A DNA stretch of 64,000 nt from Gemmatimonadota bacterium (lineage in GTDB: Bacteria > Gemmatimonadota > Gemmatimonadetes > Palauibacterales > KS3-K002). The stretch covers positions 3,684,241 through 3,748,240 of the forward strand of contig CP070722.1 in assembly GCA_020350785.1 (NCBI GenBank), read 5' to 3'. Positions 6,748 through 27,382 of this stretch are shown piece after piece. Each line of letters starts with the position of its first letter. The first letter of the stretch is position 1. The notes under the pieces were generated by a model. It ran no database searches. It saw only the letters and a program-made list of their open reading frames with translations, and was not told the origin of the DNA. The position numbers and the translations under genes are program-made.

Positions 6748-7858
6748 ATGGCTGTGGCAACCGAGTTGACTGTGCTCAAGGACCTCCATCGGCGTGTGGA
6801 GGAGCTCAGGAGGTACCTTTGACATTGAACAGAAGAAGGCGCGGACCGACGATCTGGAAAGATTGACGGCTGGCCCGCGCTTTTGGGAAGACGCTGACCG
6901 GGCGCGAGCCGTCATGCAGGAGCTGAACGACCTGAAAGGCTGGCTCGAGCCGTGGGACGGGCTTCGGCGACGCTCTGCTGATCTGATGGAGCTGGGCGAG
7001 CTGATCGATGTCGAGGGCGGCGATGACATGGAGGAGGAGTTCCGCCGCGAGGTGGAGGCATTGGTCAGGGACGTGGACGACCTGGAGTTCAGGGCCATGC
7101 TGCGGGGCGCCGACGCGGAGCGCGATGCGCTGGTGACCATCCACCCGGGTGCTGGAGGCACCGACTCCCAGGACTGGGCCGAGCTGCTCATGCGCATGTA
7201 CACGCGCTGGGCGGAGTCACATGGATTTGACGCGGCCGTCCTGGATCTGGTGCCGGCCGAAGAGGCCGGGATCAAGTCGGTGACCCTGGAGATTCGAGGC
7301 CGCTTCGCCTACGGATACCTTCAGGCGGAGAAGGGGATTCACCGCCTCGTCCGGATTTCGCCGTTCGATCAGCAGGCTCGTCGCCATACTTCGTTCGCCT
7401 CGGTATTCGTCTACCCGGTGGTTGATGACGCCGTGGAGGTGGAGGTCAGCCCGGAGGACTTGCGTATCGATACCTACCGCGCCTCAGGCAAAGGCGGCCA
7501 ACACGTGAACAAGACGGACTCGGCGGTCCGAATCACCCATATTCCAACCGGCATCGTGGTCTCTTGCCAGCAGGAGCGCAGCCAACATCGCAACAAGAAC
7601 ACGGCGATGAAGATGCTGAGGGCGGCGCTCTATGAGAAAGCGATGGAGGAGCGGCGGCGCGAGCGCGAGAAGATCGACGCAACCAAGACCGAGATCGCTT
7701 GGGGCAACCAGATACGCTCGTATATCTTCCAGCCTTACACGCTGGTCAAGGACCATCGGACCGAAATCGAGAAGACGGATGTCCAGCGGGTGATGCAAGG
7801 CGAGATAGACGACTTCATTATCGGCTACCTCAAGGAATTCGGAAACCAGCTGGCATGA
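6748..7858 (+). CDS. prfB: Peptide chain release factor 2, expressed via programmed +1 ribosomal frameshift at codon 25 (CTT TGA C at 6817-6823)
   Basis: Frame-0 ATG 6748 encodes MAVATELTVLKDLHRRVEELRRYL, then in-frame TGA 6820-6822. AGGAGG lies 3 nt upstream of CTT. The +1 frame continues (ORF track 6794..7858) with RF2 motifs SPF and GGQ (GGQHVNKTDSAVR). Confidence 0.9.
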
Positions 7859-9366
7859 CCGAGACCGGGGAGGCTCAGCACGTCATTCGGGCTCGGCGCG
7901 AGAAGCTCCGGCAGCTGCGGGAGCTGGGCGTCGAGCCCTACTGTTATCGCTACGAGCCGAACAGCACGGCCGCAGCCGCGATTCAGGCTTTCGAGGCGGC
8001 GGGCGATGACGGGGTCGAGACCCGACTGGCTGGACGCCTGCGTTCATTCCGGCCACATGGTAAGACCTCGTTCGGCCACCTCGAGGATCGCAGTGGCAAG
8101 ATCCAGATCTATTTCCGCGCGGATGTTCTGGGTGAGGCCGGCTACGAGCTGGTGAAGCTGCTGGACCTGGGTGACTGGGTCGGGGTTGAGGGCGCCCTTT
8201 TCCGCACGCGCACGGGAGAGATCACCGTGCGTGCCGATACGGTACAGCTGCTGGCCAAGACCGTACGGCCACTGCCTTATGGCAAGGAGGAGACGGACGA
8301 GGGCGGCGACACGGTCGTACACGGCGGATTCGCAGATGTGGAGAGCCGCTATCGCCAGCGCTATGCGGATCTCGCCGTCAATCCGGAGGTGCGTGACCTG
8401 TTCCTCACCCGCAGCAGGGTCGTGCAGGAGATCCAGCGGTTCCTGGACGCGCGGGGGTTCCTGCCCGTCGAGACTCCTATTCTGCAGCCAATCTACGGCG
8501 GTGCCACGGCCAACCCCTTCAAGACGTACCATCGCGCACTGGACACGGAACTGTACCTGCGGATTGCCGACGAGCTCTACTTGAAGCGTCTGATCGTCGG
8601 AGGCCTGGAGCGGGTCTACGAGATCGGCAAGGTCTTTCGCAACGAGGGGATCGACCGAACCCACAATCCCGAGTTCTCGATGCTGGAACTCTACCAGGCC
8701 TATGCCGACTACGGTGACATGATGGATCTCACCGAGTCGCTGGTGCACGAGGTCGTCGTGCGGGTTAGCGGGTCGTCGCGCGTGGTCTATCAGGGCGAGG
8801 AAATCGATTTCGAGCCCCCCTGGCCACGGCTCGCCTGGTACGAGGCCTTGGAGAGGCACGGCGATGTCCGACGATCGGAACTGCAGGGGGGCGCCCTGCG
8901 CGAGGCGGCGCTCTCGGCGGGTGTCGAGGGGGCCGATGACAAGGGACGCGCGGCGCTTCTCGATGGGCTGTTCAAGGCCCGCGTGGAAGAGCACTTGAGA
9001 GGGCCGCTCATCATCTACGATTACCCGGTGGAGTTAAGTCCCTTGGCCAAGCACAAGCGCGATGGCGATAAGGAGCTGACCGAGCGCTTCGAGGTCTTCG
9101 TCGCCGGCCACGAGATCGCTAACGCCTTCAGCGAACTGAACGACCCGCTAGAGCAGAGGGAACGCTTCGAGGCGCAAGCGCGTATGCGTGAAGAGGAGGG
9201 TTGGGAGGAGGCTCATCAGATCGATGACGATTACATCTCCGCCCTCGAGTACGGTTTGCCTCCCACCGGCGGGATGGGTCTGGGGATCGACCGCTTGGTC
9301 ATGCTGCTGACGGGTCGAGCTTCGATTCGGGAGGTCATCCTCTTCCCGACGCTGAGGCCGGAGTAA
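7855..9366 (+). CDS. lysS: Lysine--tRNA ligase (class II)
   Basis: ATG 7855 overlaps prfB stop (ATGA). Class II aaRS motifs, anticodon-binding OB fold. Conserved prfB-lysS gene order. Confidence 0.92.
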   Translation: MTETGEAQHVIRARREKLRQLRELGVEPYCYRYEPNSTAAAAIQAFEAAGDDGVETRLAGRLRSFRPHGKTSFGHLEDRSGKIQIYFRADVLGEAGYELVKLLDLGDWVGVEGALFRTRTGEITVRADTVQLLAKTVRPLPYGKEETDEGGDTVVHGGFADVESRYRQRYADLAVNPEVRDLFLTRSRVVQEIQRFLDARGFLPVETPILQPIYGGATANPFKTYHRALDTELYLRIADELYLKRLIVGGLERVYEIGKVFRNEGIDRTHNPEFSMLELYQAYADYGDMMDLTESLVHEVVVRVSGSSRVVYQGEEIDFEPPWPRLAWYEALERHGDVRRSELQGGALREAALSAGVEGADDKGRAALLDGLFKARVEEHLRGPLIIYDYPVELSPLAKHKRDGDKELTERFEVFVAGHEIANAFSELNDPLEQRERFEAQARMREEEGWEEAHQIDDDYISALEYGLPPTGGMGLGIDRLVMLLTGRASIREVILFPTLRPE

Positions 9367-9369
9367 GTC

Positions 9370-10704
9370 ATGGGTCTCGAGCTACACATCGCGTTCCGCT
9401 ATCTCTCCGTGAAGCGTTGGTGGCATTGGCTTATTGTCGTCGCCTTCGTGGCTCTCTCGCCGCTCTGGATCATAGCTGCCTTTATCGTCCTGGCCGTTGC
9501 GTCAGAACGACTGGCCGATATCTCTTCTCGGGCAGCCAGCCTGATCATCACGATAATTGCGATCGGAGGCATCTACCTGGGGGTCGCGGCCCTGATCGTG
9601 GTAATCGGGGTGATGTCGGGCCTTCAGACCGAGGTTCGCGATCGGATTCTGGGCACGAACCCGCACATCATGATGCTGACCTACGGCGATGAGCTCAGGT
9701 TCGAAGACTGGGAGGGGCCACTTGAGGCCGCACGGGCAGACCCGGACGTGACGATTGGAGAACCGTTTGTCTATACGCAGTCGCTCGTCTTCAAGCGAGT
9801 GCACTACCAGCAGGGCCTGGCGCTGCGCGGGATCAGTCAAGACGCGACCGAACGATTGGGCGACCAGACCCTTGTCGGTGATTGGAACTTCAACGACACC
9901 GGATCCGGCCTGCCGGGCCTGGTGTTGGGCTTTCGGCTGGCCGGGCGCCTGCAAGCGGGCCCTGGCGACACGGTGAACTTGATCTCGGGCCAGGGCGCAG
10001 AACTGACGCCGGCGGGCTTTATCCCGAAGTTCAAGAAATTCGAGGTGGTCGGACTCTTCAGGAGTGGAATGTTCGAGTACGACAACCAGATGGCCTACAG
10101 TTCCCTGGAAGCGGCCCAGGATCTCGTGGGCTTGGATGATGCGGTGACCGGATTGGCGTTCTGGGTAAAGGACCCTTGGAAGGCCGATGAAGTGGCGGCG
10201 CGCCTCTCCCAGACGCTGGGCTATCCCTACTATCTCCGGGACTGGAAGGTGACGAACGAAGGGCTGTTCAATGCGCTGAAGCTGGAGAAGATGGGTATGG
10301 CGCTCGTGCTGGCGCTCATCGTAATCGTCGCTGCCTTCAACATCGTCTCCACCTTGATCATGGTGGTGGCGGACAAGACTCGCGAGATCGGGATCCTCCG
10401 GTCCATGGGGATGACGTCACGTCGGGTTCTCAACGTGTTCATGCTGCAGGGCCTGATCATCGGAGTTGCCGGAACGATGCTGGGATTGGTAGGAGGTTTG
10501 GCCCTGAGTTGGGCGATCGACTACTTCAACCTCATAGCATTGCCGGGGGACGTCTACCTGATCAGCGAGATCCCGATAATACTCAACCCGCTTGATATCG
10601 CCTGGATCGTGGCTGCTGGCATCTTCATATCGCTGCTCGCGACGGTCTATCCCTCGCACCTGGCCGCGCGACTCACCCCGGTCGAGGCGATTCGCCATGA
10701 GTAG
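9370..10704 (+). CDS. Lipoprotein-release ABC transporter permease, LolC/LolE family (FtsX-like, MacB-type periplasmic domain)
   Basis: N-terminal FRYL motif, large periplasmic domain, C-terminal FtsX 3-TM module. An extra hydrophobic segment precedes TM1. Confidence 0.8.
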   Translation: MGLELHIAFRYLSVKRWWHWLIVVAFVALSPLWIIAAFIVLAVASERLADISSRAASLIITIIAIGGIYLGVAALIVVIGVMSGLQTEVRDRILGTNPHIMMLTYGDELRFEDWEGPLEAARADPDVTIGEPFVYTQSLVFKRVHYQQGLALRGISQDATERLGDQTLVGDWNFNDTGSGLPGLVLGFRLAGRLQAGPGDTVNLISGQGAELTPAGFIPKFKKFEVVGLFRSGMFEYDNQMAYSSLEAAQDLVGLDDAVTGLAFWVKDPWKADEVAARLSQTLGYPYYLRDWKVTNEGLFNALKLEKMGMALVLALIVIVAAFNIVSTLIMVVADKTREIGILRSMGMTSRRVLNVFMLQGLIIGVAGTMLGLVGGLALSWAIDYFNLIALPGDVYLISEIPIILNPLDIAWIVAAGIFISLLATVYPSHLAARLTPVEAIRHE

Positions 10705-11458
10705 CCAGGGGCGGTCCGAGCGAGCGGGGAAGTACCAGCCTTCGGAACGGCCGATCTTGGTGGCCGAGAACTTGCACAAATCCTTCCTGGACAGCGACGG
10801 CTCGGATCTGCCGATTCTCAAGGGGCTGCATCTGGAGGTCCGGGTCGGCGAGGTCGTCGCCGTAATAGGCCCGAGCGGGGCGGGGAAGAGCACGATGCTG
10901 CACCTTCTGGGCGGCCTGGACCGTCCCAGTGGGGGAGAGGTCTATTTGGAGGGGCAGCCGCTCTCCGGCTTGGATGAGCAGTCTTTGGCCCAGGCTCGTA
11001 ACTCTCGAATTGGCTTCGTGTTCCAGTTTCACCATCTGTTGCGGGAGTTCAGCGCGCTTGAAAATATCATGCTGCCGCTTTTGATTGGAAACGTGGAGCG
11101 CTCCCAAGCGCAGGCCCGTGGCGAAGCGCTGCTGGGCGCTGTAGGCCTGGAGCGGCGGGGGGGACACAAGCCGCCCCAGTTATCCGGAGGCGAGCGGCAG
11201 CGCGTGGCGGTGGCGCGAGCATTGGCGAACGAGCCTCTCGTTCTCTTGGCCGACGAGCCTTCGGGCAATCTCGATGATCAAACGGCCGAAGGGCTCCACG
11301 ATCTGTTCTTCCGGCTCCGGGATGAGCGCGATTTCGCGATTGTGCTCGTGACGCATAATAGAGAGTTCGCGAGCCGGGCCGACCGAGTCCTCTGGCTGCA
11401 CGACGGCCAGCTCCACCCCGTCTCTTTGTCGATGGCGGAGCATGAGGCGGTACCGTAA
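10697..11458 (+). CDS. lolD: Lipoprotein-release ABC transporter ATP-binding protein
   Basis: Walker A GPSGAGKST, ABC signature LSGGERQRVAVARAL, Walker B LLADEPSGNLD. Start overlaps lolC by 8 nt. Confidence 0.85.
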   Translation: MSSQGRSERAGKYQPSERPILVAENLHKSFLDSDGSDLPILKGLHLEVRVGEVVAVIGPSGAGKSTMLHLLGGLDRPSGGEVYLEGQPLSGLDEQSLAQARNSRIGFVFQFHHLLREFSALENIMLPLLIGNVERSQAQARGEALLGAVGLERRGGHKPPQLSGGERQRVAVARALANEPLVLLADEPSGNLDDQTAEGLHDLFFRLRDERDFAIVLVTHNREFASRADRVLWLHDGQLHPVSLSMAEHEAVP

Positions 11459-11961
11459 TGCTGTGCGATAACTGTGGGAAGAACGAGGCAGAGGTCCATC
11501 TGACGCAGATTGTGGACAACGAGATGACCACGGTCCATCTCTGTCCGAGTTGTGCGGCCGAGAAGGGACTGGATGCGGGTGGCGGCAAGAATCTGCCTCT
11601 CACCGACTTTCTTGCCCAGATGGGCCAAGCGGCGATCGCCGACGAAGAAGCCACGGGTGTGGAGCCGTGTTCATACTGCCACACGACGGTCGATGACTTC
11701 CGGCGAACGGGGCGCCTCGGTTGCCCGCATTGCTACTCGGTTTTCGAGTCCCAACTCCGTGCAATTTTGAGGCGCATTCACGGATCGACTTATCACCTGG
11801 GCAAGGTCTATGTGCCGCCGGCCAGTGAGGCGGCGGAGCGCAGCGCGCGGCTGTCCGGGCTGCGGCGCAAGCTGCAGCGCGCCGTGGAGGCGGAGGACTT
11901 CGAGCGGGCCGCGGTCATCCGCGACCAGATCCGCGAGCTGGAGACAACGGCGGACCGATGA
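11458..11961 (+). CDS. mcsA: McsA-like activator of protein-arginine kinase (four CxxC zinc-finger pairs + UVR motif)
   Basis: CDNC...CPSC and CSYC...CPHC pairs. C-terminal UvrB/UvrC-type motif LQRAVEAEDFERAAVIRDQIRELE. ATG shares 1 nt with lolD stop (TAATG). Stop overlaps mcsB start. Confidence 0.7.
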   Translation: MLCDNCGKNEAEVHLTQIVDNEMTTVHLCPSCAAEKGLDAGGGKNLPLTDFLAQMGQAAIADEEATGVEPCSYCHTTVDDFRRTGRLGCPHCYSVFESQLRAILRRIHGSTYHLGKVYVPPASEAAERSARLSGLRRKLQRAVEAEDFERAAVIRDQIRELETTADR

Positions 11962-13052
11962 GGAGACTAGACCTGGCTTCGACGCCGGACTTCGGCCTCA
12001 GTTGGCTCGACGCTACTGGCCCCGACAGCGATATCGTGCTCTCCACGCGAGTGCGCATCGCCCGCAATCTGCAGGGGTATCCTTTCTCGATCCGCGCCAA
12101 GCCAGCCGATCGAGCCGCCATTCTGGCGACGGTGCGGGAAGCGGTGGACCGCATGCCACCTCTAGCTGACGGCGTCATTCTGGAGCTGGATACGCTGGAG
12201 GCGCGAGGGCGCCAGCTCCTGCTGGAGCGGCACTTGGTCAGCAGGGAGTTGGCTGGCGCCGGGGGAGCAGACAGTCCCTCTTCTGCCGCGCTGGTGTCCT
12301 CATTGGCCGAGCCCGTCGGGTTGATGATAAACGAAGAGGATCACCTGCGCCTGCAAAGCCTGACGAGCGGCTTCGGCCCGCGGAAGACATGGCGGCTGGT
12401 GGATTCCCTCGACGAGGATCTGGGGAGCGCGCTTCCCTTCGCCTTCCACCACGAGTTTGGCCACCTGACGTCATGTCCTACGAATTGCGGAACAGGGTTG
12501 CGAGCGTCGGTGCTGATACACCTCCCCGGCTTGGTCCTGACGAAGGAAATCAACAAGGTGCTTCAGGGGATAACGCAGGTGGGCCTCACCTTCCGCGGCC
12601 TGTATGGGGAGGGCTCCGAGGTCATCGGAAACCTGTTTCAGGTATCGAACCAGACCACCCTGGGTAAGAGCGAGGAGGACCTGATCGACCACTTGCACAA
12701 GATCGTCGGTCAAGTCGTGGAGTATGAGCGTCAGGCTCGCTCGGTGCTGTTGCGTGACGCTCCCAACGTCATCGAGGATAAGGTTTGGCGGGCCTACGGG
12801 TTGCTGCGGCACGCGCGCTCCTTAGGGTTCGACGAGATGATGAACCTGCTCTCGGGCGTTCGCCTGGGGCTGTCGCTGAAACTTCTATTAGGGCCTAGTG
12901 TATTTGTGTTGAATCGGATAATGATATTTGCTCAGAATGCGCACCTGGAGGAGGCAAGCGCCGGAACGCTCGCCGTCGGGGAGCGTGACTTCCAGCGCGC
13001 CAGCCACGTACGGGCGGCTCTGGCGGAAGCGGAGCGAGCCGCAGACAGATAG
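11958..13052 (+). CDS. mcsB: Protein-arginine kinase McsB (ATP:guanido phosphotransferase family)
   Basis: Phosphagen-kinase active-site signature CPTNCGTGLRASVLIHLPGL. ~364 aa. ATGA overlap with mcsA. Confidence 0.85.
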   Translation: MRRLDLASTPDFGLSWLDATGPDSDIVLSTRVRIARNLQGYPFSIRAKPADRAAILATVREAVDRMPPLADGVILELDTLEARGRQLLLERHLVSRELAGAGGADSPSSAALVSSLAEPVGLMINEEDHLRLQSLTSGFGPRKTWRLVDSLDEDLGSALPFAFHHEFGHLTSCPTNCGTGLRASVLIHLPGLVLTKEINKVLQGITQVGLTFRGLYGEGSEVIGNLFQVSNQTTLGKSEEDLIDHLHKIVGQVVEYERQARSVLLRDAPNVIEDKVWRAYGLLRHARSLGFDEMMNLLSGVRLGLSLKLLLGPSVFVLNRIMIFAQNAHLEEASAGTLAVGERDFQRASHVRAALAEAERAADR

Positions 13053-13105: not shown

Positions 13106-15571
13106 ATGAATTACAATTTCACCGATCGGGTGCGGAAGGTCCTGGCGATGGCACGCGAGGAAGCCATTCGTCTGCAGCATGACTACGTCGGGACCGAACA
13201 TATCCTGCTGGGCTTGATCCGCGAAGGTGAAGGTGTCGCAGCGGCGGTACTGATGAACCTGAATGTCGACCTCGATCAGGTGCAGGAGCGGACCGAGGAG
13301 CAGGTTCGTAAAGGCAAGGCCGGTGCGACGATGGGCGAGCTCCCCTATACGTCGCGAGCGAAGAAGGTGTTGGAGTTCGCCGTGGCGGAAGCTCGGGAGC
13401 TGAGCCACAGCTACGTGGGCACCGAGCATTTGCTGTTGGGACTGCTGAGAGAAGAGAAGGGGGTTGCGGCGCAGGTCTTGGAGTCACTGGGGGTGACGCT
13501 GGAGGCGGCGCGTGACCAGACGCTGAAGCTCTTGGGTACCGATGTGCCGACGTCGGGCGCGAGCGCCAGCGCGGGGGCCAGTAAGGAGAAGAAGTCGAAG
13601 ACTCCGGCTCTGGATCATTTCTGCCGTGACCTGACCGAGTTGGCGCGGGGTGGCGAGCTCGATCCGACGATCGGTCGCGAGCAGGAGATCGAGCGTGTGA
13701 TGGAAATCCTGTCCCGGCGTAAGAAGAACAACCCGGTCTTGATCGGGGAGCCCGGGGTGGGGAAGACGGCGATCGTCGAGGGTTTAGCCCAGCTGATAGC
13801 GCGCGGTGAGGTCGCGGACAGTCTGAAGGGTCACCGGGTTCTGGCGCTGGACATGGCGGCCGTGATCGCGGGCACGAAGTATCGTGGTCAGTTCGAGGAG
13901 CGCCTCAAAGCGGTCATGAACGAGATTGCCCAGAACCGGGATGTAATACTGTTCATCGATGAGGTGCACACGCTTGTTGGCGCCGGGGCAGCGGAAGGGG
14001 CGATTGACGCGTCCAACATGCTGAAGCCTTCGCTGGCCCGTGGCGAGCTGCAGTGCATAGGCGCTTCGACGTTGAACGAATATCGCAAGTACATCGAGAA
14101 GGATGGAGCTCTCGAGCGCCGTTTTCAGACGGTCATGGTGGAACCGCCCACTGTGGATGAGACGATTGATATCCTTAGCGGGTTGAAGAAGCGCTACGAG
14201 GACCACCACAAGGTCTTGTTGCCGCAGGACACGCTGGTCAACGCGGCCAAGCTGTCCGAGCGGTACATCACCGACCGATATCTGCCGGACAAGGCCATCG
14301 ACGTGATCGATGAGGCGTGCGCCCGCGTCCATCTATCGACACAGGTGCCGCCGCCTGAGGTCGCCGACCTTCAGGAGGACCTGAAGCGAATCGGGCAGCT
14401 CAAGGACGAGGCCATACGGGACCAGGACTTCGAGCGAGCGGCCGAGCTTCGCGACAGGGAGCGTGAGCAGCAATCGGAGATCCGACGACGCCGCGAGGAA
14501 TGGGAGGAGGAGCGCCGCACCTTCCGGCCGACGATAACCGAGGACGATGTGGCGTTCATCGTTTCGCGCTGGACTGGGATTCCGGTGACGCGGCTGCAGG
14601 AGGGTGAGACCGATCGGTTGCTTCGGATGGAAGAGGAGTTGCACAGGCACGTCGTCGGCCAAGACGAGGCGATCACCGGCATCAGCCGTGCCATCCGGCG
14701 GAGCCGCGCGGGCCTCAAGGATCCGAATCGCCCCATCGGCTCGTTCATCTTCAGCGGCCCGACGGGCGTGGGCAAGACCGAGTTGGCGCGGGCGCTGGCG
14801 CGTTTTCTGTTCGCAGATGAGAACGCCCTGATCCGTGTCGACATGTCGGAGTACATGGAGAAGTTCTCGGTGAGCCGGTTGATCGGGGCTCCTCCCGGTT
14901 ACGTGGGTTACGAGGACAGCGGCGCCCTGACCAAATCGGTGCGCCATAAGCCTTACAGCGTGGTTCTGTTTGACGAGATCGAGAAAGCCCACCCGGATGT
15001 CTTCAATATTCTGCTGCAAATACTCGACGACGGCAGAATCACAGATAACTACGGTCGCGTTATCGATTTCAAGAACACGATCCTGATCATGACCTCGAAC
15101 GTTGGAGCTCGTGATATCGCCAAAGGCGGAGGTCTCGGATTTCACCAGCAGGACGACAAGGCCAGTTACGATGACATGGCTCGGCGCGTCAAAGAGGAGA
15201 TTCAGAGGGTCTTCAATCCGGAATTCTTGAACCGGCTCGATGATGTGATCGTGTTCCACCCGCTCTCCAAGGAGCACATCCGGCAGATCGTCGACGTGCT
15301 GATGCGAGATGTGCGTTCCAGATTGGAAGAGGAGTCACTGAAGCTACAGCTGACCGACCCTGCGGTGGCGTTCCTGGTGGAGCATGGATATGATGCGACC
15401 TACGGTGCCCGCCCGCTGCGGCGCGCGATTCAGCGCTACGTCGAGGATCCTCTGTCGGAGAAGATCCTGATGGCGGAGTTGACGCCGGGCGACATTATCG
15501 AGGTCGACGTATCAGCGGACGGAGAGAAGCTCGAGTTTCGAGTGCTCTCGTCCTCATCGTTCGCCACGTGA
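13106..15571 (+). CDS. clpC: ATP-dependent Clp protease ATP-binding subunit ClpC (two AAA+ modules, Clp-N repeats, UVR-containing M-domain)
   Basis: N-terminus [46 protein letters not shown] closely parallels Bacillus ClpC. Walker [10 protein letters not shown] and [12 protein letters not shown] motif in linker. GTG 13103 is an alternative start. Confidence 0.92.
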
Positions 15572-18624: not shown

Positions 18625-18665
18625 GCGCCCACGGGCAGGTGAGGCACCGTGGGCGCTCTTTCTGT
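18625..18665 (+). terminator. Strong hairpin + U-rich tract between skp and lpxD (partial terminator/attenuator candidate)
   Basis: GCGCCCACGG-(12 nt loop)-CCGTGGGCGC 10-bp GC stem followed by TCTTTCTGTGG. A second hairpin GCTTGGC...GCCAAGC lies just upstream. Confidence 0.45.
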
Positions 18666-19745: not shown

Positions 19746-19758
19746 AACTCAGCGGGCC

Positions 19759-21060
19759 ATGTCTTCGAGGAGGAGGACACGCTTGAAGCAGCAGACGCTG
19801 ACAAGCGCGATCGAGCTTGAAGGAAAGGGACTCCATACGGGCGAATCCGTGAGGATGGTGATACGCCCGGCGCCAGATGATTCGGGCATCGTCTTCCGGC
19901 GAGTCGATCTCGATGGGTGTCCCGAGATTTCCGCCAGTGTGGACAACGTGGTGAACATGGAGCGCGGGACGGTGCTGGAGCGCGACGGCGCGCGCGTTCG
20001 GACGACGGAGCACCTACTTTCGGCTTTGGCGGGGGTGGGGATCGATAACGCCGTCGTCGACTTGACAGGCGAGGAGCCCCCCGCGGCGGATGGCAGTGCT
20101 GCCAGTTTCGTCGAGCTTCTGCCGGATTCCGTGATCGAGCGGCAGGAGAGTGAGGCGCCCGTTTGGACATGCGAAGAGCCGTTCGTCGTCGAAGAGGGCT
20201 CGGCACGCTACGCGGTTGTGCCCGACTCGACGCTCAGGATATCGGCATCGATCGAGTTCGAACACCCTCTAATCAGTCGCCAACACGCTTCCTACGTCAT
20301 CGATCCGGGGATTTACCGAGAGGCGGTTGCCCGGGCACGGACGTTCGGGTTTCTGCATGAGGCTGAGCAGTTGCGGGCCAGCGGCCTGGCGCGCGGGGCC
20401 GACCTAGGCAACACGGTCGTTCTGACGCCCGATGGACTATACGCCGGCGTTGAGTTGCGGTTCGCGGACGAATTCGTTCGCCACAAGATATTGGATATAA
20501 TCGGCGACCTGGCGCTCACCGGAGTACGGATTCACGCTCAGATCGTGGCGGAGCGTCCCGGGCACCGTGGAAACGTCGCCCTGGCTCGCGAGATAACTGA
20601 GCGAACACGGAGGCAACGATCGGCGCGGCGGGTGGACATCGAGCAGATCTTCCAGATCTTGCCGCACCGTTACCCCTTCTTGCTGGTCGATCGGGTCATC
20701 GAGTATGAGCGTGCCAAACGGATTGTCGGAATAAAGAACGTCACGATCAACGAACCCTTCTTCATCGGGCATTTCCCGGGCTTGCCGATCATGCCTGGAG
20801 TCCTGATCATCGAAGCGATGGCGCAAGTAGGTGGCTTGCTGTTGATGGATTCGGTGGAGAATCCGGAAGAGAAGATCGTCTATTTCATGTCGTTGGACAA
20901 TGTGAAGTTCCGTCGCCCGGTTACGCCGGGCGATCAGCTAGTATTCGAGCTGGAGATGCTTCAGATGCGGCGGTCGGTTTGCCGGATGAAAGGAGTTGGG
21001 CGGGTGGACGGAACGGTTGTGGCTGAGGCGGAGATGATGGCACAGGTGGTGGACCGATGA
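19759..21060 (+). CDS. lpxC/fabZ: Bifunctional UDP-3-O-acyl-GlcNAc deacetylase / 3-hydroxyacyl-ACP dehydratase (LpxC-FabZ fusion)
   Basis: N-terminal LpxC region ([21 protein letters not shown]...[18 protein letters not shown]). C-terminal FabZ hot-dog domain ([13 protein letters not shown]...[27 protein letters not shown]). GTG 19732 is an alternative start. Confidence 0.9.
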
Positions 21061-21866
21061 CGACACCGACCGTGGCGGGTAGGGGGCCCGCCCCTCCACA
21101 GATTCACCCCACAGCGATCGTCGACCCAGGTGCCGAATTGGCGGATGGTGTCCGCGTAGGACCCTACGCGATCATCGGCCACAACGTGAAGATCGGTGCC
21201 GGGACGGTGATCGGACCGCATGCCTATATCGAGAAGGACACTCGTATAGGACGGGAGTGTTTCATCTCGAAAGGTGCCGTGCTGGGCACGGACCCTCAGG
21301 ATTTGAAGTACGAAGGTGAGGAGACGCTGCTCATCGTTGGAGATGGTACCACGATTCGAGAGTTTGCCACTCTCAACCGGGGTACCCGCGCTTCCGGATC
21401 CACCGAAGTGGGGAGCGGCTGCCTGTTAATGGCGTATTCTCACATCTCGCACGACTCTCGCATCGGCGACCATGTGATAATCGCCAATGCAGTCAACATG
21501 GGTGGCCATGTCGTGATCGAGAATTGGGCGACGATCGGGGGTGTCACCGCTATTCACCAGTTCGTGCGGATCGGCGCCTACGCCTTCGTCGGCGGCGGCT
21601 CGCGGGTGCCAAAAGACGTTGCACCTTTCACGCGCGCCGCGGGTAACCCGCTCAAGCTGTACGGGCTCAACACCGTCGGACTGGAGCGGCGCGGCTTCTC
21701 CGATGAAGTTCGTATGGAACTAAAGCGAGCCTACCGACAGCTGTTCAACTCGAGCATGAACATGAGTCAGGCAATAGCAGAATTGCGTGCCCAGGGTCGG
21801 CTGATCGAGGAGGTCGAGCGGATGGTCTCGTTCATCGAAGGTAGCGAACGCGGGGTATCAATCTGA
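21057..21866 (+). CDS. lpxA: Acyl-ACP--UDP-N-acetylglucosamine O-acyltransferase
   Basis: IHPTAIVDPGAELADGVRVGPYAIIG hexapeptide repeats and C-terminal helical domain. ATGA overlap with upstream gene. Confidence 0.9.
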   Translation: MTTPTVAGRGPAPPQIHPTAIVDPGAELADGVRVGPYAIIGHNVKIGAGTVIGPHAYIEKDTRIGRECFISKGAVLGTDPQDLKYEGEETLLIVGDGTTIREFATLNRGTRASGSTEVGSGCLLMAYSHISHDSRIGDHVIIANAVNMGGHVVIENWATIGGVTAIHQFVRIGAYAFVGGGSRVPKDVAPFTRAAGNPLKLYGLNTVGLERRGFSDEVRMELKRAYRQLFNSSMNMSQAIAELRAQGRLIEEVERMVSFIEGSERGVSI

Positions 21867-21873
21867 CGGCGCC

Positions 21874-22857
21874 TTGGATCCCGTCGCGATCGCTGTACTG
21901 GGAGTAGGGAGTCTCGGCTTCCATCACGCGCGCCTGCTGCAGGACCTGCCGGAGGCGCGACTGGTCGGTGTCTATGATATCGACGGCGGCCGGGCACGCT
22001 CCGTAGCGTCAGAGCTGGGGACTCGGGGCTACGACTCAGTCGATACACTGCTCCAAGATGTGGAGGCGGTAACCATAGCCGTCCCGACTAGCCGGCATTT
22101 CGAAATGGCCGTGCTGGCCCTCCGACAGGACTGCGATGTGTTTATCGAGAAACCAATCACCTCGAGCACGGCGGAAGCAGACGAGCTTATTGAACTAGCC
22201 GCCGCGGCCGACCGAATCATCCAGGTGGGACATGTCGAACGCTTCAACGGCGCCGTAAGAGCCTGCGAACCCTTCTTGGACAAACCCCTTTTCGTCGAAT
22301 CTCACCGTCTGGCTCCCTTCGTTCCGCGCGGTACCGATGTCCCCGTAGTCTTGGACTTGATGATCCACGACATCGATCTGATACTCAGTCTTGTGGGAGC
22401 ACCCGTGACGGACGTGCGCGCCGCGGGCGTCTCTGTATTGAGTGGCAGCGTCGACATCGCCAATGCACGATTAGAGTTTGCCGGGGGCGCTGTCGCCAAC
22501 ATCACGGCCAGTCGCGTCTCACTTCAAAAACAGCGAAAGATCCGGTTCTTCCAGCCGAGCGGTTACTTGAGCCTCGACCTCGGGAGTGGCACCGGCGAGG
22601 TCCATCGCCGGAAGAGCGTCGAGCTGCCGAGGGGCGAGGCGTTCGATCTCGCAAACCTCATCGAACACATCCAGCTTCGCGGTGACGGCGCGGAACCGCT
22701 GCGCTTGGAGCTGCAGTCGTATGTCCGAGCGGTTCGACGGGAATCACCGGTGGCGGTGACGGCCGAGGAGGGGCGCGCGGCCCTGGCCGTTGCCCTGAAC
22801 ATCGTCGAGCGCATCGAGAGGCATCGCCAACATGTCCTTGATTCGGATTCGGCGTGA
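21874..22857 (+). CDS. Gfo/Idh/MocA-family NAD(P)-dependent oxidoreductase embedded in the lipid A operon (GnnA-like candidate)
   Basis: Rossmann N-terminus IAVLGVGSLGFHHARLL, EKP motif (DVFIEKPI), C-terminal alpha/beta dimerisation domain. TTG start. Confidence 0.8.
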   Translation: MDPVAIAVLGVGSLGFHHARLLQDLPEARLVGVYDIDGGRARSVASELGTRGYDSVDTLLQDVEAVTIAVPTSRHFEMAVLALRQDCDVFIEKPITSSTAEADELIELAAAADRIIQVGHVERFNGAVRACEPFLDKPLFVESHRLAPFVPRGTDVPVVLDLMIHDIDLILSLVGAPVTDVRAAGVSVLSGSVDIANARLEFAGGAVANITASRVSLQKQRKIRFFQPSGYLSLDLGSGTGEVHRRKSVELPRGEAFDLANLIEHIQLRGDGAEPLRLELQSYVRAVRRESPVAVTAEEGRAALAVALNIVERIERHRQHVLDSDSA

Positions 22858-22958
22858 GCGGAAGCAGCTAGGCTCGAGTGAGCGTGCCGGTATGCGCACG
22901 CGCACCCTGCTGATCCTTCTGGCCGTCGTTCTGATCGCGATCTGGTATCTCGGCTCGC

Positions 22959-24086
22959 GTGGCTGAGCCCCGCATCCTTCTCTCGGCCGGCGAGGCCTCG
23001 GGAGACTTGCACGGTGCGGAACTGGCGCGTGCCCTGCGGCGGCGCTATCCGACCGCTCAGCTGTTGGGCTTGGCCGGGCCGCAGATGGTCGACGCGGGCG
23101 TCCGACCGCTGGTCGACTTCGGTCGTCTGGCGGTCATGGGGGTGGCCGAACTCCTGACTCGGCTGCCATTCTTCCTCGCCTTGCGGCGCCGCATCGAGCG
23201 ACTCCTCGATGCCGAACCACCCGACCTCGTGATACCCATCGACTACCCAGGTTTCAACCTGCGGCTCTGCGCGGCAGCCCACGCACGAGGTCTCCCTGTG
23301 CTCTACTATATCGCGCCGCAGGTCTGGGCCTGGCGCCCGGAACGGGCCGAGATCCTGGCCGAGGCGACGGACCGCGTGGCCGTGGTTTTCCCCCAGGAGG
23401 AGCCTTTTCTGCGAAAATACGGCGTGCAGGCCGTTTTCGTGGGACACCCGCTGCTGGATACCCTTGACCGGCGGGAAGCGCGAGAGGAGGCAATTGCGGC
23501 CCTTGGGGCTGACCCTGGGCGCCCGATTCTAGGCCTATTGCCCGGTTCGCGGCCTCAGGAGGTCCGCAGACATCTGAAGCCGTTTCTCGCTGCGGCGGAC
23601 GAGGTGGTGCGGCGGCTGCCCGGCGTACAGGTCATCGTTTCGACCGCCCCTCAGGTACCGCCAGTCAATTACGCCGCTGCGAAGGGTCGCTCGTTGAGCT
23701 CCAGCTCCGCACGCCTGCTCAGTGCCGCCACGGCCGTGCTCAGCAAGTCGGGGACCACCACAGTGGAGGCGGCGCTCATGGAAACTCCGCTGGTCATCGC
23801 CCATCGCGTTCACCCATTGACTTTCGCGATGGCGCGGCGTCTGGTCACTGTTGACAGCGTCGGAATGGTGAACCTGTTGGCCGGGCGTCGCATCGTTCGG
23901 GAGTTCGTGCAACGGCTGCCGAGGCGCGCAATAGCCGACGGCTTGCTGCCATTGCTGGAAGCGGGATCTGCGGAGAGAGAGGAACTGATCATGAACCTCC
24001 GCCAGGTTCGACGATCATTAGGCGAACGCGGGGCGGCCGCTCGGGTCGCAGCGCTGGCAGAGGAACTGCTGGGCGCTCGACCGTGA
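22959..24086 (+). CDS. lpxB: Lipid-A-disaccharide synthase
   Basis: ILLSAGEASGDLHGAELARAL N-terminus, GT19 family, ~375 aa, GTG start. Confidence 0.88.
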   Translation: MAEPRILLSAGEASGDLHGAELARALRRRYPTAQLLGLAGPQMVDAGVRPLVDFGRLAVMGVAELLTRLPFFLALRRRIERLLDAEPPDLVIPIDYPGFNLRLCAAAHARGLPVLYYIAPQVWAWRPERAEILAEATDRVAVVFPQEEPFLRKYGVQAVFVGHPLLDTLDRREAREEAIAALGADPGRPILGLLPGSRPQEVRRHLKPFLAAADEVVRRLPGVQVIVSTAPQVPPVNYAAAKGRSLSSSSARLLSAATAVLSKSGTTTVEAALMETPLVIAHRVHPLTFAMARRLVTVDSVGMVNLLAGRRIVREFVQRLPRRAIADGLLPLLEAGSAEREELIMNLRQVRRSLGERGAAARVAALAEELLGARP

Positions 24087-24742
24087 GAATTCCAGAGCGG
24101 CTGACCCTGCCTCTCGTTGAATCTCTGGGCCCCTACCTCTTCCACGGGCTGTACTGGGGCCTGAGATTCGAGGTCGAAGGTTCGGAGCATCAGCAGAGGA
24201 CGTGGGAAGCGGGACAGCCCGTCGTATTCATCACCTGGCACGGTCGTATTCTGCCGCTGCTGTATCTGTATCGGAATCGCGGACTTGTCATGCTAGTGAG
24301 CCGGCATCGGGATGGCGAGTATCTGGCGCGCCTGGGCGTGCGACTGGGCTACGATGCCGTGCGCGGCTCGAGCACGCATGGAGGTTTCGAGTCGCTCCGG
24401 GACCTCGTGAGAAAGGTGAGAGCCGGTCGATCGCTGGCGATAACCCCCGACGGGCCACAAGGTCCGAGGGAGAAGTTCAAACCGGGCGCGCTGCAGGTCG
24501 CACGCTTGACGGGAGCACCGATTATCCCGGTCATGGCGGGCTGCCGGCGTGCTTGGTGGGTGGAGGGTTGGGATCGCTTCCTAGTTCCCAAGCCGTTCGC
24601 TCGCATTCGGGTCGCGATCGGGAAGCCGCACTATGTTACGCGAGAGGCGGGCGTGCGTGAGCTGGCCGATCACGCGCGACGTCTGGAGGTCGAGCTTCAG
24701 AATTTGAAGGCAACAGTCGATCACAGCGGTGGGACTCGATGA
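24083..24742 (+). CDS. DUF374-family protein (lysophospholipid-acyltransferase-like) of lipid A/Kdo loci
   Basis: ~219 aa. GTGA overlap with lpxB and ATGA overlap with lpxK. Family assignment by recalled similarity, not computed. Confidence 0.6.
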   Translation: MRIPERLTLPLVESLGPYLFHGLYWGLRFEVEGSEHQQRTWEAGQPVVFITWHGRILPLLYLYRNRGLVMLVSRHRDGEYLARLGVRLGYDAVRGSSTHGGFESLRDLVRKVRAGRSLAITPDGPQGPREKFKPGALQVARLTGAPIIPVMAGCRRAWWVEGWDRFLVPKPFARIRVAIGKPHYVTREAGVRELADHARRLEVELQNLKATVDHSGGTR

Positions 24743-25806
24743 GTACCTGGAGGGAACGCCTCTGGGAAAGAGAGGGTGAGCCGAGAGGAACGGTTCGGAC
24801 TCTGGCGGCTCTACTGACCCCGATGGAGTGGGCATACGGCGCAGGAAGCGCCGTGCGAAACTGGTGCTACGAACGCGGGGTCTTTAAGTCCGCGGTCCCG
24901 CCCATTCCCGCTGTGGCGATCGGAAATCTCACGGTGGGCGGAACTGGAAAGACGCCGATAGCTGCCTGGTTCGCTGCCCGCCTGGCGGCCTCGGGTCGCC
25001 GACCGGCGATCGTGATGCGCGGGTATGGGGGCGATGAAGGACAGGTGCATCGGCTCCTGAATCCTCGGGTGCCGGTCTGCATCGCCCCAAAGAGGGCGGC
25101 GGGAATCGGACGAGCAGCGACGCTGGGGGCCGATGTCGCCGTGTTGGACGATGCTTTCCAGCATCGCGCGCTGCGGGCCGACGCCTACGTGCTGCTTCTG
25201 GCGGCAGAGCAGTGGACCGAGCGGCCACGGCTGTTGCCGCGTGGTCCTTGGCGTGAGGGGCTGTGCGCCATCGAGCGAGCCGATCTGGTGGTCGTCACCC
25301 GGAAAGAGGCGCCGTCGGAGTGTGCGGAGCACGTAGCCGAGGCCGTTGCCAAGGCCTTTCCCGCCGTACCGCTGGCACGCGCCCATATCGGTCTGTCCAG
25401 TCTGGTCTGCTACGACTCTCAGCGAGGACTGGGGGAGGCAGTCGAGCCGCGCGGCCTGAGGTGTCAGCTGGCGGTGGCCGGTGTGGCGCGGCCAGCGGCC
25501 GTCTGGCACCAACTTGATGAGCAGGGGGTGCTGTGCGAGCAGCGCTTGACGCTGGGCGATCACCATCGCTATGGGCAGAGAGAGATATCGGAGATTGCGG
25601 CGACTGTCGGGCGTGGACGATTGATTGCCACACTCAAAGATGCTGTCAAGCTTGGCGGCAGGCTTCCTCCCGAAGTACTCATCTACGTTCCGCTGCAAGC
25701 GGTGGTCTGGGAGGCCGGCGGGGAAGCAGTCGAGCAACTCGTCAACACCAGGCTGGCCGAGCGGAGAGGCCGGCGCGGACCGCGAGGTGAGGCCGATCGA
25801 CACTGA
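24739..25806 (+). CDS. lpxK: Tetraacyldisaccharide 4'-kinase
   Basis: P-loop GNLTVGGTGKTP, ~355 aa. Confidence 0.88.
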   Translation: MSTWRERLWEREGEPRGTVRTLAALLTPMEWAYGAGSAVRNWCYERGVFKSAVPPIPAVAIGNLTVGGTGKTPIAAWFAARLAASGRRPAIVMRGYGGDEGQVHRLLNPRVPVCIAPKRAAGIGRAATLGADVAVLDDAFQHRALRADAYVLLLAAEQWTERPRLLPRGPWREGLCAIERADLVVVTRKEAPSECAEHVAEAVAKAFPAVPLARAHIGLSSLVCYDSQRGLGEAVEPRGLRCQLAVAGVARPAAVWHQLDEQGVLCEQRLTLGDHHRYGQREISEIAATVGRGRLIATLKDAVKLGGRLPPEVLIYVPLQAVVWEAGGEAVEQLVNTRLAERRGRRGPRGEADRH

Positions 25807-27382
25807 TATTCTGGTGGTGGGCAGTGGAATCGCGGGCCTCACTTTCGCCCTGCGTGTGGCCGAGTACGCCGATGTGGTCTTGGTCACGAAGAAAGATCGC
25901 CTGGATTCGAACACGAATTACGCGCAGGGCGGGATTGCTGCCGTCGTCTCGTCCGGTGACTCGTTTGGCAGACACGTCGAGGACACACTTCATGCTGGCG
26001 CGGGCCTTTGTCATATCGACCGGGTACGGACGCTCGTGCGCAGCGGCCCGCAGGCAGTCGCCGACCTGATCGAATGGGGAGTCCAATTCTCTCGCAGCGA
26101 GGGGCGACTTGCCCTGGGAATAGAGGGCGGGCACTCGAAAGCGCGGATCGTCCACAGCCAGGATCGAACCGGGGCTGCCATCGAGGATGCGCTGGACCGC
26201 GCGGTGGCGGCTCACCCCCGGATCCGCGTGTTGGAGAACCACATGGCGCTGTCCTTGCTCGCGGCGCGCTTGGAGGGGCGCCGACGATGTGGAGGGGCCT
26301 GGGTTCTCGACGTGAAGTCGGGTAGCGCGATCCAGTTGATCTCGCGGGCGACCATGTTGGCGGCCGGCGGCAGCTCCGCCGTGTATCAGCATACGACCAA
26401 TCCGGCGATCGCCACGGGAGACGGAGTCGCCATCGCTCATCGGATCGGGGCGACCGTGGCTAACATGGAATTCACTCAATTTCACCCCACCGCCCTCTAT
26501 CCGGCAGAGGAGCGTGCTTTCCTGATTTCGGAGGCGCTGCGTGGCGAAGGCGCGATCCTCCGCAATTGGGACGGCGATGCCTTCATGCACGCCTACGACG
26601 TACGCGGCGACCTCGCCCCGAGAGATATCGTCGCGCGAGCGGTGCACAGCGAACTGAGGAACAGCGCCAAACCGCACCTTTGGCTGGACGCGCGGCACAT
26701 CGCTCGGGAAAGGATGGAGGAGAGATTCCCGGGCATCTTGGAGGGGTGCCTGAGTAAGGACATAGATCCGCGTCGGGACCCTATTCCGATCGTTCCCGCC
26801 GCTCACTACATGTGCGGTGGCGTGTGGACAGACCGGGATGGACGGACGACTTTGCCGGGCCTGTTTGCGGCGGGGGAAACCGCCTGTACGGGAGTGCATG
26901 GGGCCAACCGGCTCGCCTCGAACTCACTGCTTGAGGCGGTCGTCTTCGCGGAGCGCGCCGCCGCTCGCATGCTTCAGGAGTTGGCGTTCGTGCCGGCGCC
27001 GGGCGATCTCGAGGTGTTGACCCCACAGGATCTCTCCGGATTCCCGGCGGCGCCGCTGTCCGATCTGCGGAATCGATTGAAGCAGGTGATGTGGGACCAT
27101 TTGGGCATCGTGCGAACCAGGTCCGAGATGCACGCGGGCGCCGAACTCCTTGAGGGATTGCGGCGCGAGTGGTGGCAGCTGTCGCAACGCAGTGAGCCCT
27201 CCGGAAATGGGATCCACTGGGCCGAGGCTGCGGAGACGCTGAATATGATCGATGTAGCGCGACTGGCCGTGCGCTGCGCGCGCTGGCGCCGCGAGAGCCG
27301 AGGTCTCCATTTCGTCACGGATTTCCCACATCGGGACAACGAGTCTTTTCTGCATGACAGCACGATCGTCGCGACGGGCTGA
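25787..27382 (+). CDS. nadB: L-aspartate oxidase (FAD-dependent, NAD biosynthesis)
   Basis: FAD-binding DILVVGSGIAGL, succinate dehydrogenase/fumarate reductase flavoprotein fold. GTG 25787 overlaps lpxK 3' end. The track ORF begins further upstream in the same frame. Confidence 0.85.
   Translation: MRPIDTDILVVGSGIAGLTFALRVAEYADVVLVTKKDRLDSNTNYAQGGIAAVVSSGDSFGRHVEDTLHAGAGLCHIDRVRTLVRSGPQAVADLIEWGVQFSRSEGRLALGIEGGHSKARIVHSQDRTGAAIEDALDRAVAAHPRIRVLENHMALSLLAARLEGRRRCGGAWVLDVKSGSAIQLISRATMLAAGGSSAVYQHTTNPAIATGDGVAIAHRIGATVANMEFTQFHPTALYPAEERAFLISEALRGEGAILRNWDGDAFMHAYDVRGDLAPRDIVARAVHSELRNSAKPHLWLDARHIARERMEERFPGILEGCLSKDIDPRRDPIPIVPAAHYMCGGVWTDRDGRTTLPGLFAAGETACTGVHGANRLASNSLLEAVVFAERAAARMLQELAFVPAPGDLEVLTPQDLSGFPAAPLSDLRNRLKQVMWDHLGIVRTRSEMHAGAELLEGLRREWWQLSQRSEPSGNGIHWAEAAETLNMIDVARLAVRCARWRRESRGLHFVTDFPHRDNESFLHDSTIVATG

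Follow-up and report, generated by a model that had tools for sequence, protein, structure and literature searches.

A gene array conserved in Gemmatimonadota overlaps arginine-kinase proteolysis genes with genes of envelope biogenesis

The window analyzed in this study is a 64-kb stretch of DNA (GC content ~62%) derived from a metagenome-assembled genome (MAG) of a member of the Gemmatimonadota. On its plus strand, between positions 6748 and 27382, it contains an array of 17 named genes in the order prfB-lysS-lolC-lolD-mcsA-mcsB-clpC-bamA-skp-lpxD-lpxC/fabZ-lpxA-gfo-lpxB-DUF374-lpxK-nadB. Within this array, the genes for McsA, the protein arginine kinase McsB, and the AAA+ unfoldase ClpC are bordered by envelope genes on both sides: mcsA overlaps the end of lolD, and bamA overlaps the end of clpC. 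The same order recurs throughout the Gemmatimonadota and, in Eisenbacteria-type bacteria, outside of the phylum. Gene identities were assigned with Pfam and NCBIfam profile searches, which confirmed the strand and the identity that an earlier note on this DNA had given for each of the 17 genes.

The array opens with prfB (release factor 2, RF2; 6748..7858), which begins at ATG 6748, encodes the Pfam domains PCRF and RF-1, and includes a programmed +1 frameshift. The frameshift site, AGGAGG-TAC-CTT-TGA-C at ~6808-6823 (with CTT TGA C at ~6817-6823), is kept in 12 relatives. The following gene, lysS (class II lysyl-tRNA synthetase by Pfam; 7855..9366), overlaps prfB by an ATGA, and is followed by a single-copy gene for a LolC/E-family permease (9370..10704; Pfam MacB_PCD and FtsX) and the gene for a LolD-like ABC ATPase (10697..11458), which overlap each other by 8 nt. 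Both transporter proteins score just below the trusted cutoffs of the dedicated profiles (326 bits against the 362 cutoff of TIGR02212, lolCE, for the permease; 270 bits against the 308 cutoff of TIGR02211, LolD, for the ATPase); the putative lipoprotein role of these lolCD-type genes is supported by the presence of lnt adjoining the same genes in the Omnitrophota locus L083. The mcsA gene (11458..11961) shares one nucleotide with lolD (TAATG), and in turn overlaps mcsB (11958..13052) by an ATGA. A 53-nt spacer, in which a Shine-Dalgarno sequence is the sole conserved element in the alignment of relatives, separates mcsB from clpC (13106..15571). The bamA gene (15568..18000) encodes five POTRA domains and an Omp85 domain, scores 371 bits against TIGR03303 (above the 297 cutoff), and begins in the clpC stop codon (GTGA). 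This overlap is real, because the BamA signal peptide (...AAPLSA/QTQ) is obtained solely from the GTG at 15568 and would be removed by the next possible start.

The three proteins of the arginine-kinase system carry the features expected from Bacillus. McsA has two CxxC...CxxC zinc fingers (C3/C6/C29/C32 and C71/C74/C89/C92) and a UVR domain (Pfam UVR, residues 131-162), with a score of 128 bits against NCBIfam NF053706, below its cutoff of 210. McsB contains the ATP-gua_Ptrans domain (PF00217, 201 bits), and the McsB_C domain (PF27454) is annotated on an identical protein; it aligns over its full length with the Bacillus subtilis McsB structure (282 bits) and also with the Geobacillus stearothermophilus McsB structure, and its score against the NCBIfam equivalog is just below the cutoff (367 and 385 bits, respectively). 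The NEEDH and CPTNxGTGLR motifs and the C-terminal arginine pair (R343/R347) of McsB are invariant across six sequences (five diderm loci of four labelled groups, and B. subtilis). ClpC scores 1014 bits against B. subtilis ClpC; in the alignment with that protein (3j3t), VGTEH is present in both N-domain repeats, the glutamates align to B. subtilis E32 and E106, and an LGF loop aligns with the B. subtilis VGF. These glutamates we take to be the residues that bind phosphoarginine (pArg), and the (I/L/V)GF loop is presumably the site of ClpP docking; a functional role of the pArg-binding residues of ClpC was reportedly described by Trentini and colleagues in 2016. From these features, the arginine-kinase/unfoldase system looks complete and intact. 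A gene with a CtsR domain was not found upstream of mcsA in the window or in any diderm neighborhood examined, and the domain (PF05848) was present only in the Bacillus neighborhood (L087). Neither a ClpP peptidase nor a YwlE-type arginine phosphatase was found among the open reading frames (ORFs) of the 64-kb window scanned with Pfam.

Downstream of bamA, the array continues with skp (18039..18587; Pfam OmpH; start set by alignment with relatives), lpxD (18699..19745; Pfam LpxD and Hexapep), an lpxC-fabZ fusion (19783..21060; Pfam LpxC and FabA), and lpxA (21057..21866; Pfam), which overlaps the fusion gene by an ATGA. The lpxC start is a TTG at 19783 (MKQQTL), with the Shine-Dalgarno sequence GGAGGAGG 6 nt upstream, and the lpxD/lpxC junction is thus most likely a gap of +37 nt. 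The next gene, gfo (21874..22857), encodes an oxidoreductase of the Gfo/Idh/MocA family by both Pfam and NCBIfam; the top curated match of its product is a UDP-GlcNAc 3-dehydrogenase (181 bits, below cutoff). This match hints at a GnnA-like step and a lipid A of the GlcN3N type, and a GnnB-like aminotransferase gene is not adjacent. Between gfo and lpxB lies a previously unlisted ORF of 44 amino acids (22832..22966, plus strand), which overlaps the end of gfo by 26 nt and the start of lpxB by 8 nt. Its sequence, MSLIRIRRERKQLGSSERAGMRTRTLLILLAVVLIAIWYLGSRG (MSLIRIRRERK...LLILLAVVLIAIWYL), consists of a basic N-terminus and one hydrophobic, single transmembrane helix; relatives L095, L096, and L170 keep the ORF, L166 has a similar one, and a Pfam search with the window ORF returned no match. 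It may encode a small membrane protein with a part in lipid A synthesis. The array then proceeds through lpxB (22959..24086; Pfam), the gene for a DUF374 protein (24083..24742; Pfam; GTGA overlap with lpxB), lpxK (24739..25806; Pfam; ATGA overlap with the DUF374 gene), and nadB (L-aspartate oxidase; 25787..27382), which overlaps lpxK by 20 nt and scores 539 bits against TIGR00551, above cutoff.

The nine overlaps itemized in the earlier note are all present. Its total of eleven overlapping junctions is reached, as 11 of 17, only when the 44-amino-acid ORF is counted. Three gaps are longer than the 50 nt that it gives as the upper limit, measuring 53 nt at mcsB/clpC, 93-111 nt at skp/lpxD, and 101 nt at gfo/lpxB. 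RNA folding of the gfo-lpxB, mcsB-clpC, bamA-skp, and nadB-rlmH gaps yielded no significant structure. The two modules that the note had regarded as classical, prfB-lysS and bamA-skp-lpxD-fabZ-lpxA-lpxB, are each contiguous and co-directional, and are borne out by the domain searches.

Conservation of the array was assessed with a scan for McsB, using one genome per GTDB species, which produced 80 loci onto which the proteins of the window were mapped by tblastn. The earlier note had raised the possibility that the lolD-mcsA and clpC-bamA adjacencies are limited to one strain, and this is not the case. Across the Gemmatimonadota loci, all of them from MAGs, lolD lies upstream of mcsA in 56 of 57, clpC follows mcsB in all 49 of 49, and bamA follows clpC in 41 of 42. 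One apparent counter-example to clpC-bamA adjacency, L017, was discarded, as it has a breakpoint inside clpC. The order prfB-lysS-lolC-lolD-mcsA-mcsB-clpC-bamA-skp-lpxD-lpxC/fabZ-lpxA-gfo, preceded by genes for GGDEF-like and Zn-ribbon proteins, is found in essentially all Gemmatimonadota loci of sufficient length, including contigs labelled Gemmatimonadales and Longimicrobiales, down to 52% identity in McsB and ~39% in BamA. The overlaps are conserved along with the order: the median junction is -1 nt for lolD to mcsA (overlapping in 32 of 51 loci), -4 nt for mcsA to mcsB (52 of 59), and -4 nt for clpC to bamA (31 of 41).

The downstream half of the array was compared by means of a metagenome scan with LpxK, and it is likewise collinear in metagenome contigs (gfo-lpxB-DUF374-lpxK-X-rlmH-(methyltransferase)-bshC-murJ-uvrC). 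The slot marked X, between lpxK and rlmH, is occupied by nadB only in the clade of the window; most other Gemmatimonadota have a glutamate dehydrogenase gene (gdh; ELFV_dehydrog) in this slot (for instance at L126:11051-12358, and in most of L103-L167), a clean swap with the rest of the array fixed. The nadB gene is therefore not a conserved member of the array. In two loci, L014 and L018, skp stands almost directly before nadB-rlmH-methyltransferase, and L014 keeps only an LpxC/FabZ-like match; the lpxD...lpxK block of these loci appears to have been moved or lost from its usual place.

Beyond the phylum, the array is found in Eisenbacteria-type loci (Eiseniibacteriota is a separate candidate phylum in the NCBI taxonomy, in which Gemmatimonadota are placed in the FCB group). 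In these loci, lolD lies upstream of mcsA in 11 of 11, clpC follows mcsB in 12 of 12, and bamA follows clpC in 7 of 7, in the tblastn-derived order purB-purL-purQ-?-purF-lysS-lolC-lolD-mcsA-mcsB-clpC-bamA-skp-lpxD-lpxC/fabZ-lpxA-gfo-lpxB. Genes called independently and labelled with Pfam show the array as well (L088, L089, L091, L092), and the identity of BamA to that of the window is only 24-27% across phyla. Two MAGs with other labels, L061 (Saccharimonadaceae) and L088 (Sulfotelmatobacter), also contain a full diderm array of the Eisenbacteria type, including bamA and lpx genes; because such an array is implausible for Saccharimonadia, these labels are probably wrong or the bins contaminated.

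A shorter core, lysS-lolC-lolD-(class IV aminotransferase)-mcsA-mcsB-clpC, is present in the Omnitrophota (L076, L081, L083, and L085; the aminotransferase gene is at L076:7284-8153), a member of the PVC group in the NCBI taxonomy. The genes after clpC vary among these loci: a TamB-like gene and then bamA in L085, an unassigned gene and then mlaEFD in L083 (which has prfB-secA-lnt upstream), and an unassigned gene and then radA-YCF81_N-ispD-ispF-cysE-like-cysS in L081. Planctomycetota loci keep mcsA-mcsB only, with lolD upstream of mcsA in 0 of 4 and clpC after mcsB in 0 of 5. Similarly, L090 has two consecutive McsA-like (UVR) genes before mcsB, with neither clpC nor lol genes nearby. Pairwise identity between phyla is 41-52% for McsB and 56-60% for ClpC, about equally distant for all those compared, a pattern more in line with old vertical descent than with recent transfer.

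The 5' end of the array is sound: prfB is preceded by 194 nt of intergenic sequence that contain a conserved promoter and hairpin. The promoter, identified by a promoter scan and by alignment, is a sigma70-like TTGACC-N18-TATCTT on the plus strand (6606..6635) upstream of prfB; GTTGACC...GATATCTTT is near-invariant in 12 close relatives, in which the flanking sequence is unalignable. This is the lone sigma70-like match in 6000-25999, with none other within 6 to ~39 kb. Other sigma70-like sites of the window sit in large intergenic gaps, at 40952 (before der) and 476 (before era), and another is located at 1607. Folding and the alignment of relatives identified a GC-rich hairpin of 10 nearly invariant pairs with a U-rich tail (6658..6690, plus strand), 3-60 nt downstream of the promoter, an order that is retained in 11 of 12 relatives. 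A role of the hairpin (6658-6681) as a plain terminator of the upstream operon was considered and dropped once the conserved promoter was found upstream of it; it may be the terminator of the upstream unit of GGDEF-like and Zn-ribbon genes, an attenuator or stabilizer in the prfB 5' leader, or both. Within 6606-6747, the promoter and the U-tailed hairpin are followed by a conserved TTAGA, and another hairpin, which is variable, lies between it and prfB. Rfam searches of 5500-29000, as well as of the prfB leader with lax filters, returned sub-threshold chance matches or nothing, and no riboswitch, T-box, or leader.

A second conserved hairpin is located after skp (18625..18665, plus strand), where the earlier note had flagged a candidate internal terminator. 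It has a strong fold, GCGCCCACGG-loop-CCGTGGGCGC with a UCUUUCUGU tail, and may act as a partial terminator or as an attenuator. Eight relatives keep the stem and tail but differ in the loop and flanks, and the two substitutions in the stem give G.U pairs, which argues for a hairpin at the level of RNA. It occurs once in the 64-kb window and is therefore not a dispersed repeat. Its most likely effect is to attenuate transcription that passes from bamA-skp into the lipid A genes.

These observations bear on the description of the 17 genes (6748-27382) as a discrete 20.6-kb unit, which is not borne out. All genes are on the same strand, 11 of 17 junctions overlap, and a single promoter-like site is present, but an internal terminator-like element also exists after skp, and the tight chain continues past nadB. 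The 3' boundary at nadB is arbitrary, because tight packing runs on through rlmH (27410-27910, +27 nt after nadB), an S-adenosylmethionine (SAM)-methyltransferase gene (27907-28659, ATGA overlap with rlmH), and bshC (28656-30263, ATGA overlap with the methyltransferase gene), all on the plus strand, and probably further. The order rlmH-methyltransferase-bshC is conserved in metagenome contigs. As a homolog of a bacillithiol biosynthesis gene, bshC is a conserved array member in Gemmatimonadota, which suggests the use of bacillithiol in this phylum.

Between bshC and murJ, there is another unlisted ORF of 89 amino acids (30333..30605, plus strand), with an N-terminal transmembrane helix and a coiled coil and no significant Pfam match. 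It is kept in L095, L099, and L170, and in L170 it overlaps the murJ start (GTGA). A very strong hairpin of 11 bp (8 of them GC pairs) followed by T7 (30633..30667, plus strand) overlaps the 5' end of the murJ frame, whose candidate starts are GTG 30592, a GTG within the loop (30646), and a TTG that closes the T-run (30663). This hairpin is kept in L095 and L099 and absent in L170, and from its position it might be a terminator or a translation-sensitive attenuator of murJ. It was considered as a clean 3' end of the operon (30633-30657 with T7) and rejected, since it extends into the murJ frame and L170, in which murJ and the small ORF overlap, lacks it; the 3' boundary is therefore soft. Packing continues through murJ, uvrC (+5 nt), gltX (+79 nt), and the gene for a PALP enzyme (ATGA overlap).

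Plus-strand orientation holds for every sizeable gene of the window between 537 and 47925, and flips beyond. At ~47925-48026, the GC skew and gene orientation both switch and the genes are convergent, which could be a replication-related strand switch or merely a local bias of the coding strand. The region from 48 to 58 kb contains genes for glycosyltransferases, a UDP-GlcNAc 2-epimerase, and large membrane proteins. A second lipopolysaccharide (LPS) cluster is found at 58103-63681 on the minus strand, comprising genes for a KdsD-like protein (SIS plus CBS), LptC, an LptA/OstA-like protein, and an LptB-like ABC ATPase, followed by rpoN. The lptCAB genes for LPS transport are thus located on the opposite strand, about 30 kb from the array.

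The modules of the array are individually known: prfB-lysS with the RF2 frameshift, mcsA-mcsB-clpC, and bamA-skp-lpxD-fabZ-lpxA-lpxB. In the E. coli-type prfB-lysS operon, RF2 is autoregulated by a +1 frameshift; the in-frame UGA after ~25 codons, the Shine-Dalgarno-like AGGAGG, the CTT TGA C, and the ATGA-overlapping lysS are all shared here. The difference is that here these genes form the 5' end of a much longer array, and that Eisenbacteria-type loci have purF instead of prfB before lysS. The E. coli-type bamA-skp-lpxD-fabZ-lpxA-lpxB cluster is also present in the same order on one strand, including the FabZ function. Unlike in that cluster, lpxC is fused to fabZ, gfo and the 44-amino-acid ORF lie between lpxA and lpxB, DUF374 and lpxK follow lpxB, and bamA overlaps clpC. 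In E. coli, bamA is preceded by rseP. Synteny of lpxABCD is known to be kept at very large distances (Antunes et al., 2016, PMC5007114). The diderm Firmicutes (Negativicutes/Halanaerobiales) have a single conserved locus with LPS synthesis and TamB/BamA/Skp genes, and this clustering has been called unusual and possibly ancestral (PMC5007114). In contrast to that locus, with which only the lpx and bamA-skp genes are shared, the array lacks TamB, OmpM, and flagellar genes; in the diderm Firmicutes, LolCDE is in a separate cluster with LolA, and the term clpC has 0 occurrences in the paper (PMC5007114).

The Bacillus mcsA-mcsB-clpC operon shares with the array its gene order, the ATGA overlap of mcsA and mcsB, and the features of all three proteins described above. 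In Bacillus, McsA-McsB-ClpC belong to a heat-shock regulon controlled by CtsR, which is the classic target of McsB. Here, there is no adjacent ctsR, lolCD upstream replaces the repressor gene, bamA replaces radA, and LPS genes are present in a diderm host; one Omnitrophota variant shares with Bacillus the downstream order radA-YCF81_N-ispD-ispF-cysE-cysS. Expression is thus probably constitutive here, judging from gene content, and not heat-shock controlled as in Bacillus, for which the operon has been described (PMC8957991). The pArg/McsB system has been framed as Gram-positive, and its presence in Chlamydia has been called intriguing, with possible horizontal transfer (PMC10128030; PMC11046695). 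Chlamydia trachomatis is a Gram-negative organism with orthologs of ClpC and McsAB, in which ClpCP degrades arginine-phosphorylated casein; its mcsAB genes are separate from clpC, tRNA-flanked, and suggested to be horizontally acquired (PMC10128030). Here, by contrast, mcsA, mcsB, and clpC directly adjoin one another inside a putative envelope operon, an arrangement kept across the phylum. The earlier note had called the lolCD-mcsAB and clpC-bamA junctions non-textbook, in keeping with full-text literature searches (McsB with Gemmatimonadetes, Planctomycetes, lolD, diderm, and outer membrane) that returned no description of the linkage. In the literature searched, we did not find lolCD overlapping mcsAB together with clpC overlapping bamA, across phyla, in LPS-containing bacteria and with no adjacent ctsR.

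With moderate confidence, we interpret the array as an old, conserved, and translationally coupled housekeeping super-operon that would express a CtsR-less pArg/ClpC system together with envelope biogenesis. From sequence and conservation, we infer co-transcription, translational coupling, attenuation, and constitutive expression, as follows. A long polycistronic mRNA would start at prfB from the sigma70-type promoter at 6606-6635, and ribosomes would move from lolC to lolD, from lolD to mcsA, from mcsA to mcsB, and from clpC to bamA by way of the 1-8 nt stop/start overlaps. The U-tailed hairpin after skp would lower, probably without abolishing, transcription into the lipid A genes, after which the packed chain would continue through lpxK, the variable slot (nadB in the window), rlmH, the methyltransferase gene, and bshC. 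Because there is no adjacent CtsR gene, McsA, McsB, and ClpC would be made constitutively, in fixed proportion with LolCD and BamA-Skp. The lysS-lolCD-mcsAB-clpC segment, common to Gemmatimonadota, Eisenbacteria-type bacteria, and Omnitrophota, would be the oldest layer, and the bamA-skp-lpx block after clpC would be common to the first two of these. The order would persist through operon lock-in (interior genes would lack promoters of their own) and through useful, growth-coupled co-regulation of envelope and proteostasis genes. The co-expression proposed in the earlier note is a reasonable inference because the overlaps are conserved and a single conserved sigma70-like promoter is present upstream of prfB; the skp hairpin, on the other hand, probably splits or attenuates transcription ahead of the lipid A genes.

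Several observations weigh against this interpretation. With its position downstream of the predicted promoter, the hairpin at 6658-6690 could stop most transcripts, and in L001 it abuts the -10 element. The promoter scan covered consensus sites of the sigma70 type; promoters internal to coding regions or for other sigma factors may exist. Tight coupling is also not universal: clpC-bamA spacing is 28-334 nt in Eisenbacteria-type loci, and one Gemmatimonadota clade (L014, L016-L019, L024, L026, L029, L032, L035, and L042) has 144-292 nt between lolD and mcsA. Alignment of these lolD-mcsA spacers for a CtsR box, CIRCE, or promoter revealed no shared motif (mean column identity 44%). Lastly, at least 27 kb are collinear in the phylum, including unrelated genes and apparent transcript breaks (bshC/murJ/uvrC), and part of the conservation may be simple inertia.

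A stronger form of the linkage, which we regard as possible and tentative at best, is direct functional coupling, in which McsAB-ClpC(P) would act on the envelope pathway and the operon would match quality-control capacity to envelope flux. The system might tag or remove lipoprotein or outer-membrane protein (OMP) precursors stuck in the cytoplasm, or control how much of a lipid A enzyme, for example LpxC-FabZ, is present; regulated proteolysis of this kind is known from E. coli, where FtsH controls the level of LpxC, and from B. subtilis, where ClpCP controls MurAA. The mechanistic link between arginine-kinase proteolysis and envelope biogenesis is hypothesized from several features of the loci. 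Envelope genes come next after clpC in three of four cross-phylum arrangements (bamA-skp-lpx; a TamB-like gene and bamA in L085; mlaEFD in L083), lolCD is always upstream, with lnt also in L083, and the stop/start overlaps are conserved at both borders of the module. Additionally, the system is complete and looks active from the ClpC glutamates, the LGF loop, the McsB catalytic motifs, and the C-terminal arginine pair, and the diderm neighborhoods encode no CtsR, which is the classic target of McsB. However, such reasoning is guilt by association: prfB, lysS, nadB/gdh, rlmH, and bshC are in the array without an envelope role, and since prfB, lysS, nadB/gdh, and rlmH are co-located with the rest, membership of the array alone implies no shared function. 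Furthermore, clpC is followed by radA-ispDF-cysS in both Bacillus and one Omnitrophota variant, and Planctomycetota have mcsAB without lol, clpC, or bamA nearby.

At the other extreme, the arrangement could reflect phylogenetic inertia only, with a slowly rearranging, leading-strand housekeeping region, separate internal promoters, and adjacency that carries no regulatory meaning. The collinear block far exceeds a plausible operon and crosses strong hairpins, the whole 47-kb plus-strand run consists of densely packed housekeeping genes, the nadB/gdh slot swaps with its neighbors undisturbed, and lolD and mcsA can be as much as 292 nt apart in the clade with the longer spacers. We nevertheless consider this quite unlikely, given that the order survives between phyla at the low BamA identities noted above though the flanks differ (purBLQF upstream in Eisenbacteria-type loci versus GGDEF-like and Zn-ribbon genes and prfB in Gemmatimonadota), that exact 1-nt and 4-nt overlaps are kept in most loci, and that no sigma70-like site is found inside the array. 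Chance juxtaposition, a strain-specific rearrangement, or mis-assembly could be entertained for a window that comes from a MAG, with a relative (L017) that is itself broken within clpC. This is extremely improbable, and is refuted by more than 100 independent contigs that show the same order and stem from different studies and assemblers, several of them closed MAG chromosomes; the array is not due to chance, as the same order and overlaps recur in dozens of independent assemblies.

The super-operon interpretation raises the question of how the diderm and Bacillus arrangements are related. In a scenario that we consider speculative and rather doubtful, mcsAB-clpC was originally part of a diderm super-operon, lysS-lolCD-mcsAB-clpC-(tamB)-bamA-skp-lpx, and the Firmicute ctsR-mcsAB-clpC-radA-...-ispDF-cysES is a remnant left after loss of the outer-membrane genes; the role in diderms would be housekeeping quality control of outer-membrane lipoprotein, OMP, or LPS biogenesis, and not heat shock. 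Consistent with this scenario, Omnitrophota combine the diderm lysS-lolCD upstream with the Bacillus-type radA-YCF81_N-ispD-ispF-cysE-cysS downstream, and McsB and ClpC are about equally distant between the phyla, as noted above. In Bacillus, lysS lies upstream of ctsR, across the rrn operons; the 10-kb Bacillus flank examined contains rRNA (a 16S motif) and no lysS.

The array thus presents a complete and, from its conserved residues, apparently functional McsA-McsB-ClpC system as a fixed, overlapped part of an outer-membrane biogenesis array. This applies to an entire Gram-negative phylum and to at least one other, and a third has the core in common. The known distribution of the pArg system is thereby extended, likely along with its physiological role, which leads to the concrete, testable hypothesis that ClpC/McsB handles envelope precursors or envelope enzymes. 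It also provides a new synteny marker for the debate on the relationship between diderm and monoderm envelopes. Even if the linkage is merely one of co-regulation, the array would still represent a striking and deep multi-function super-operon.

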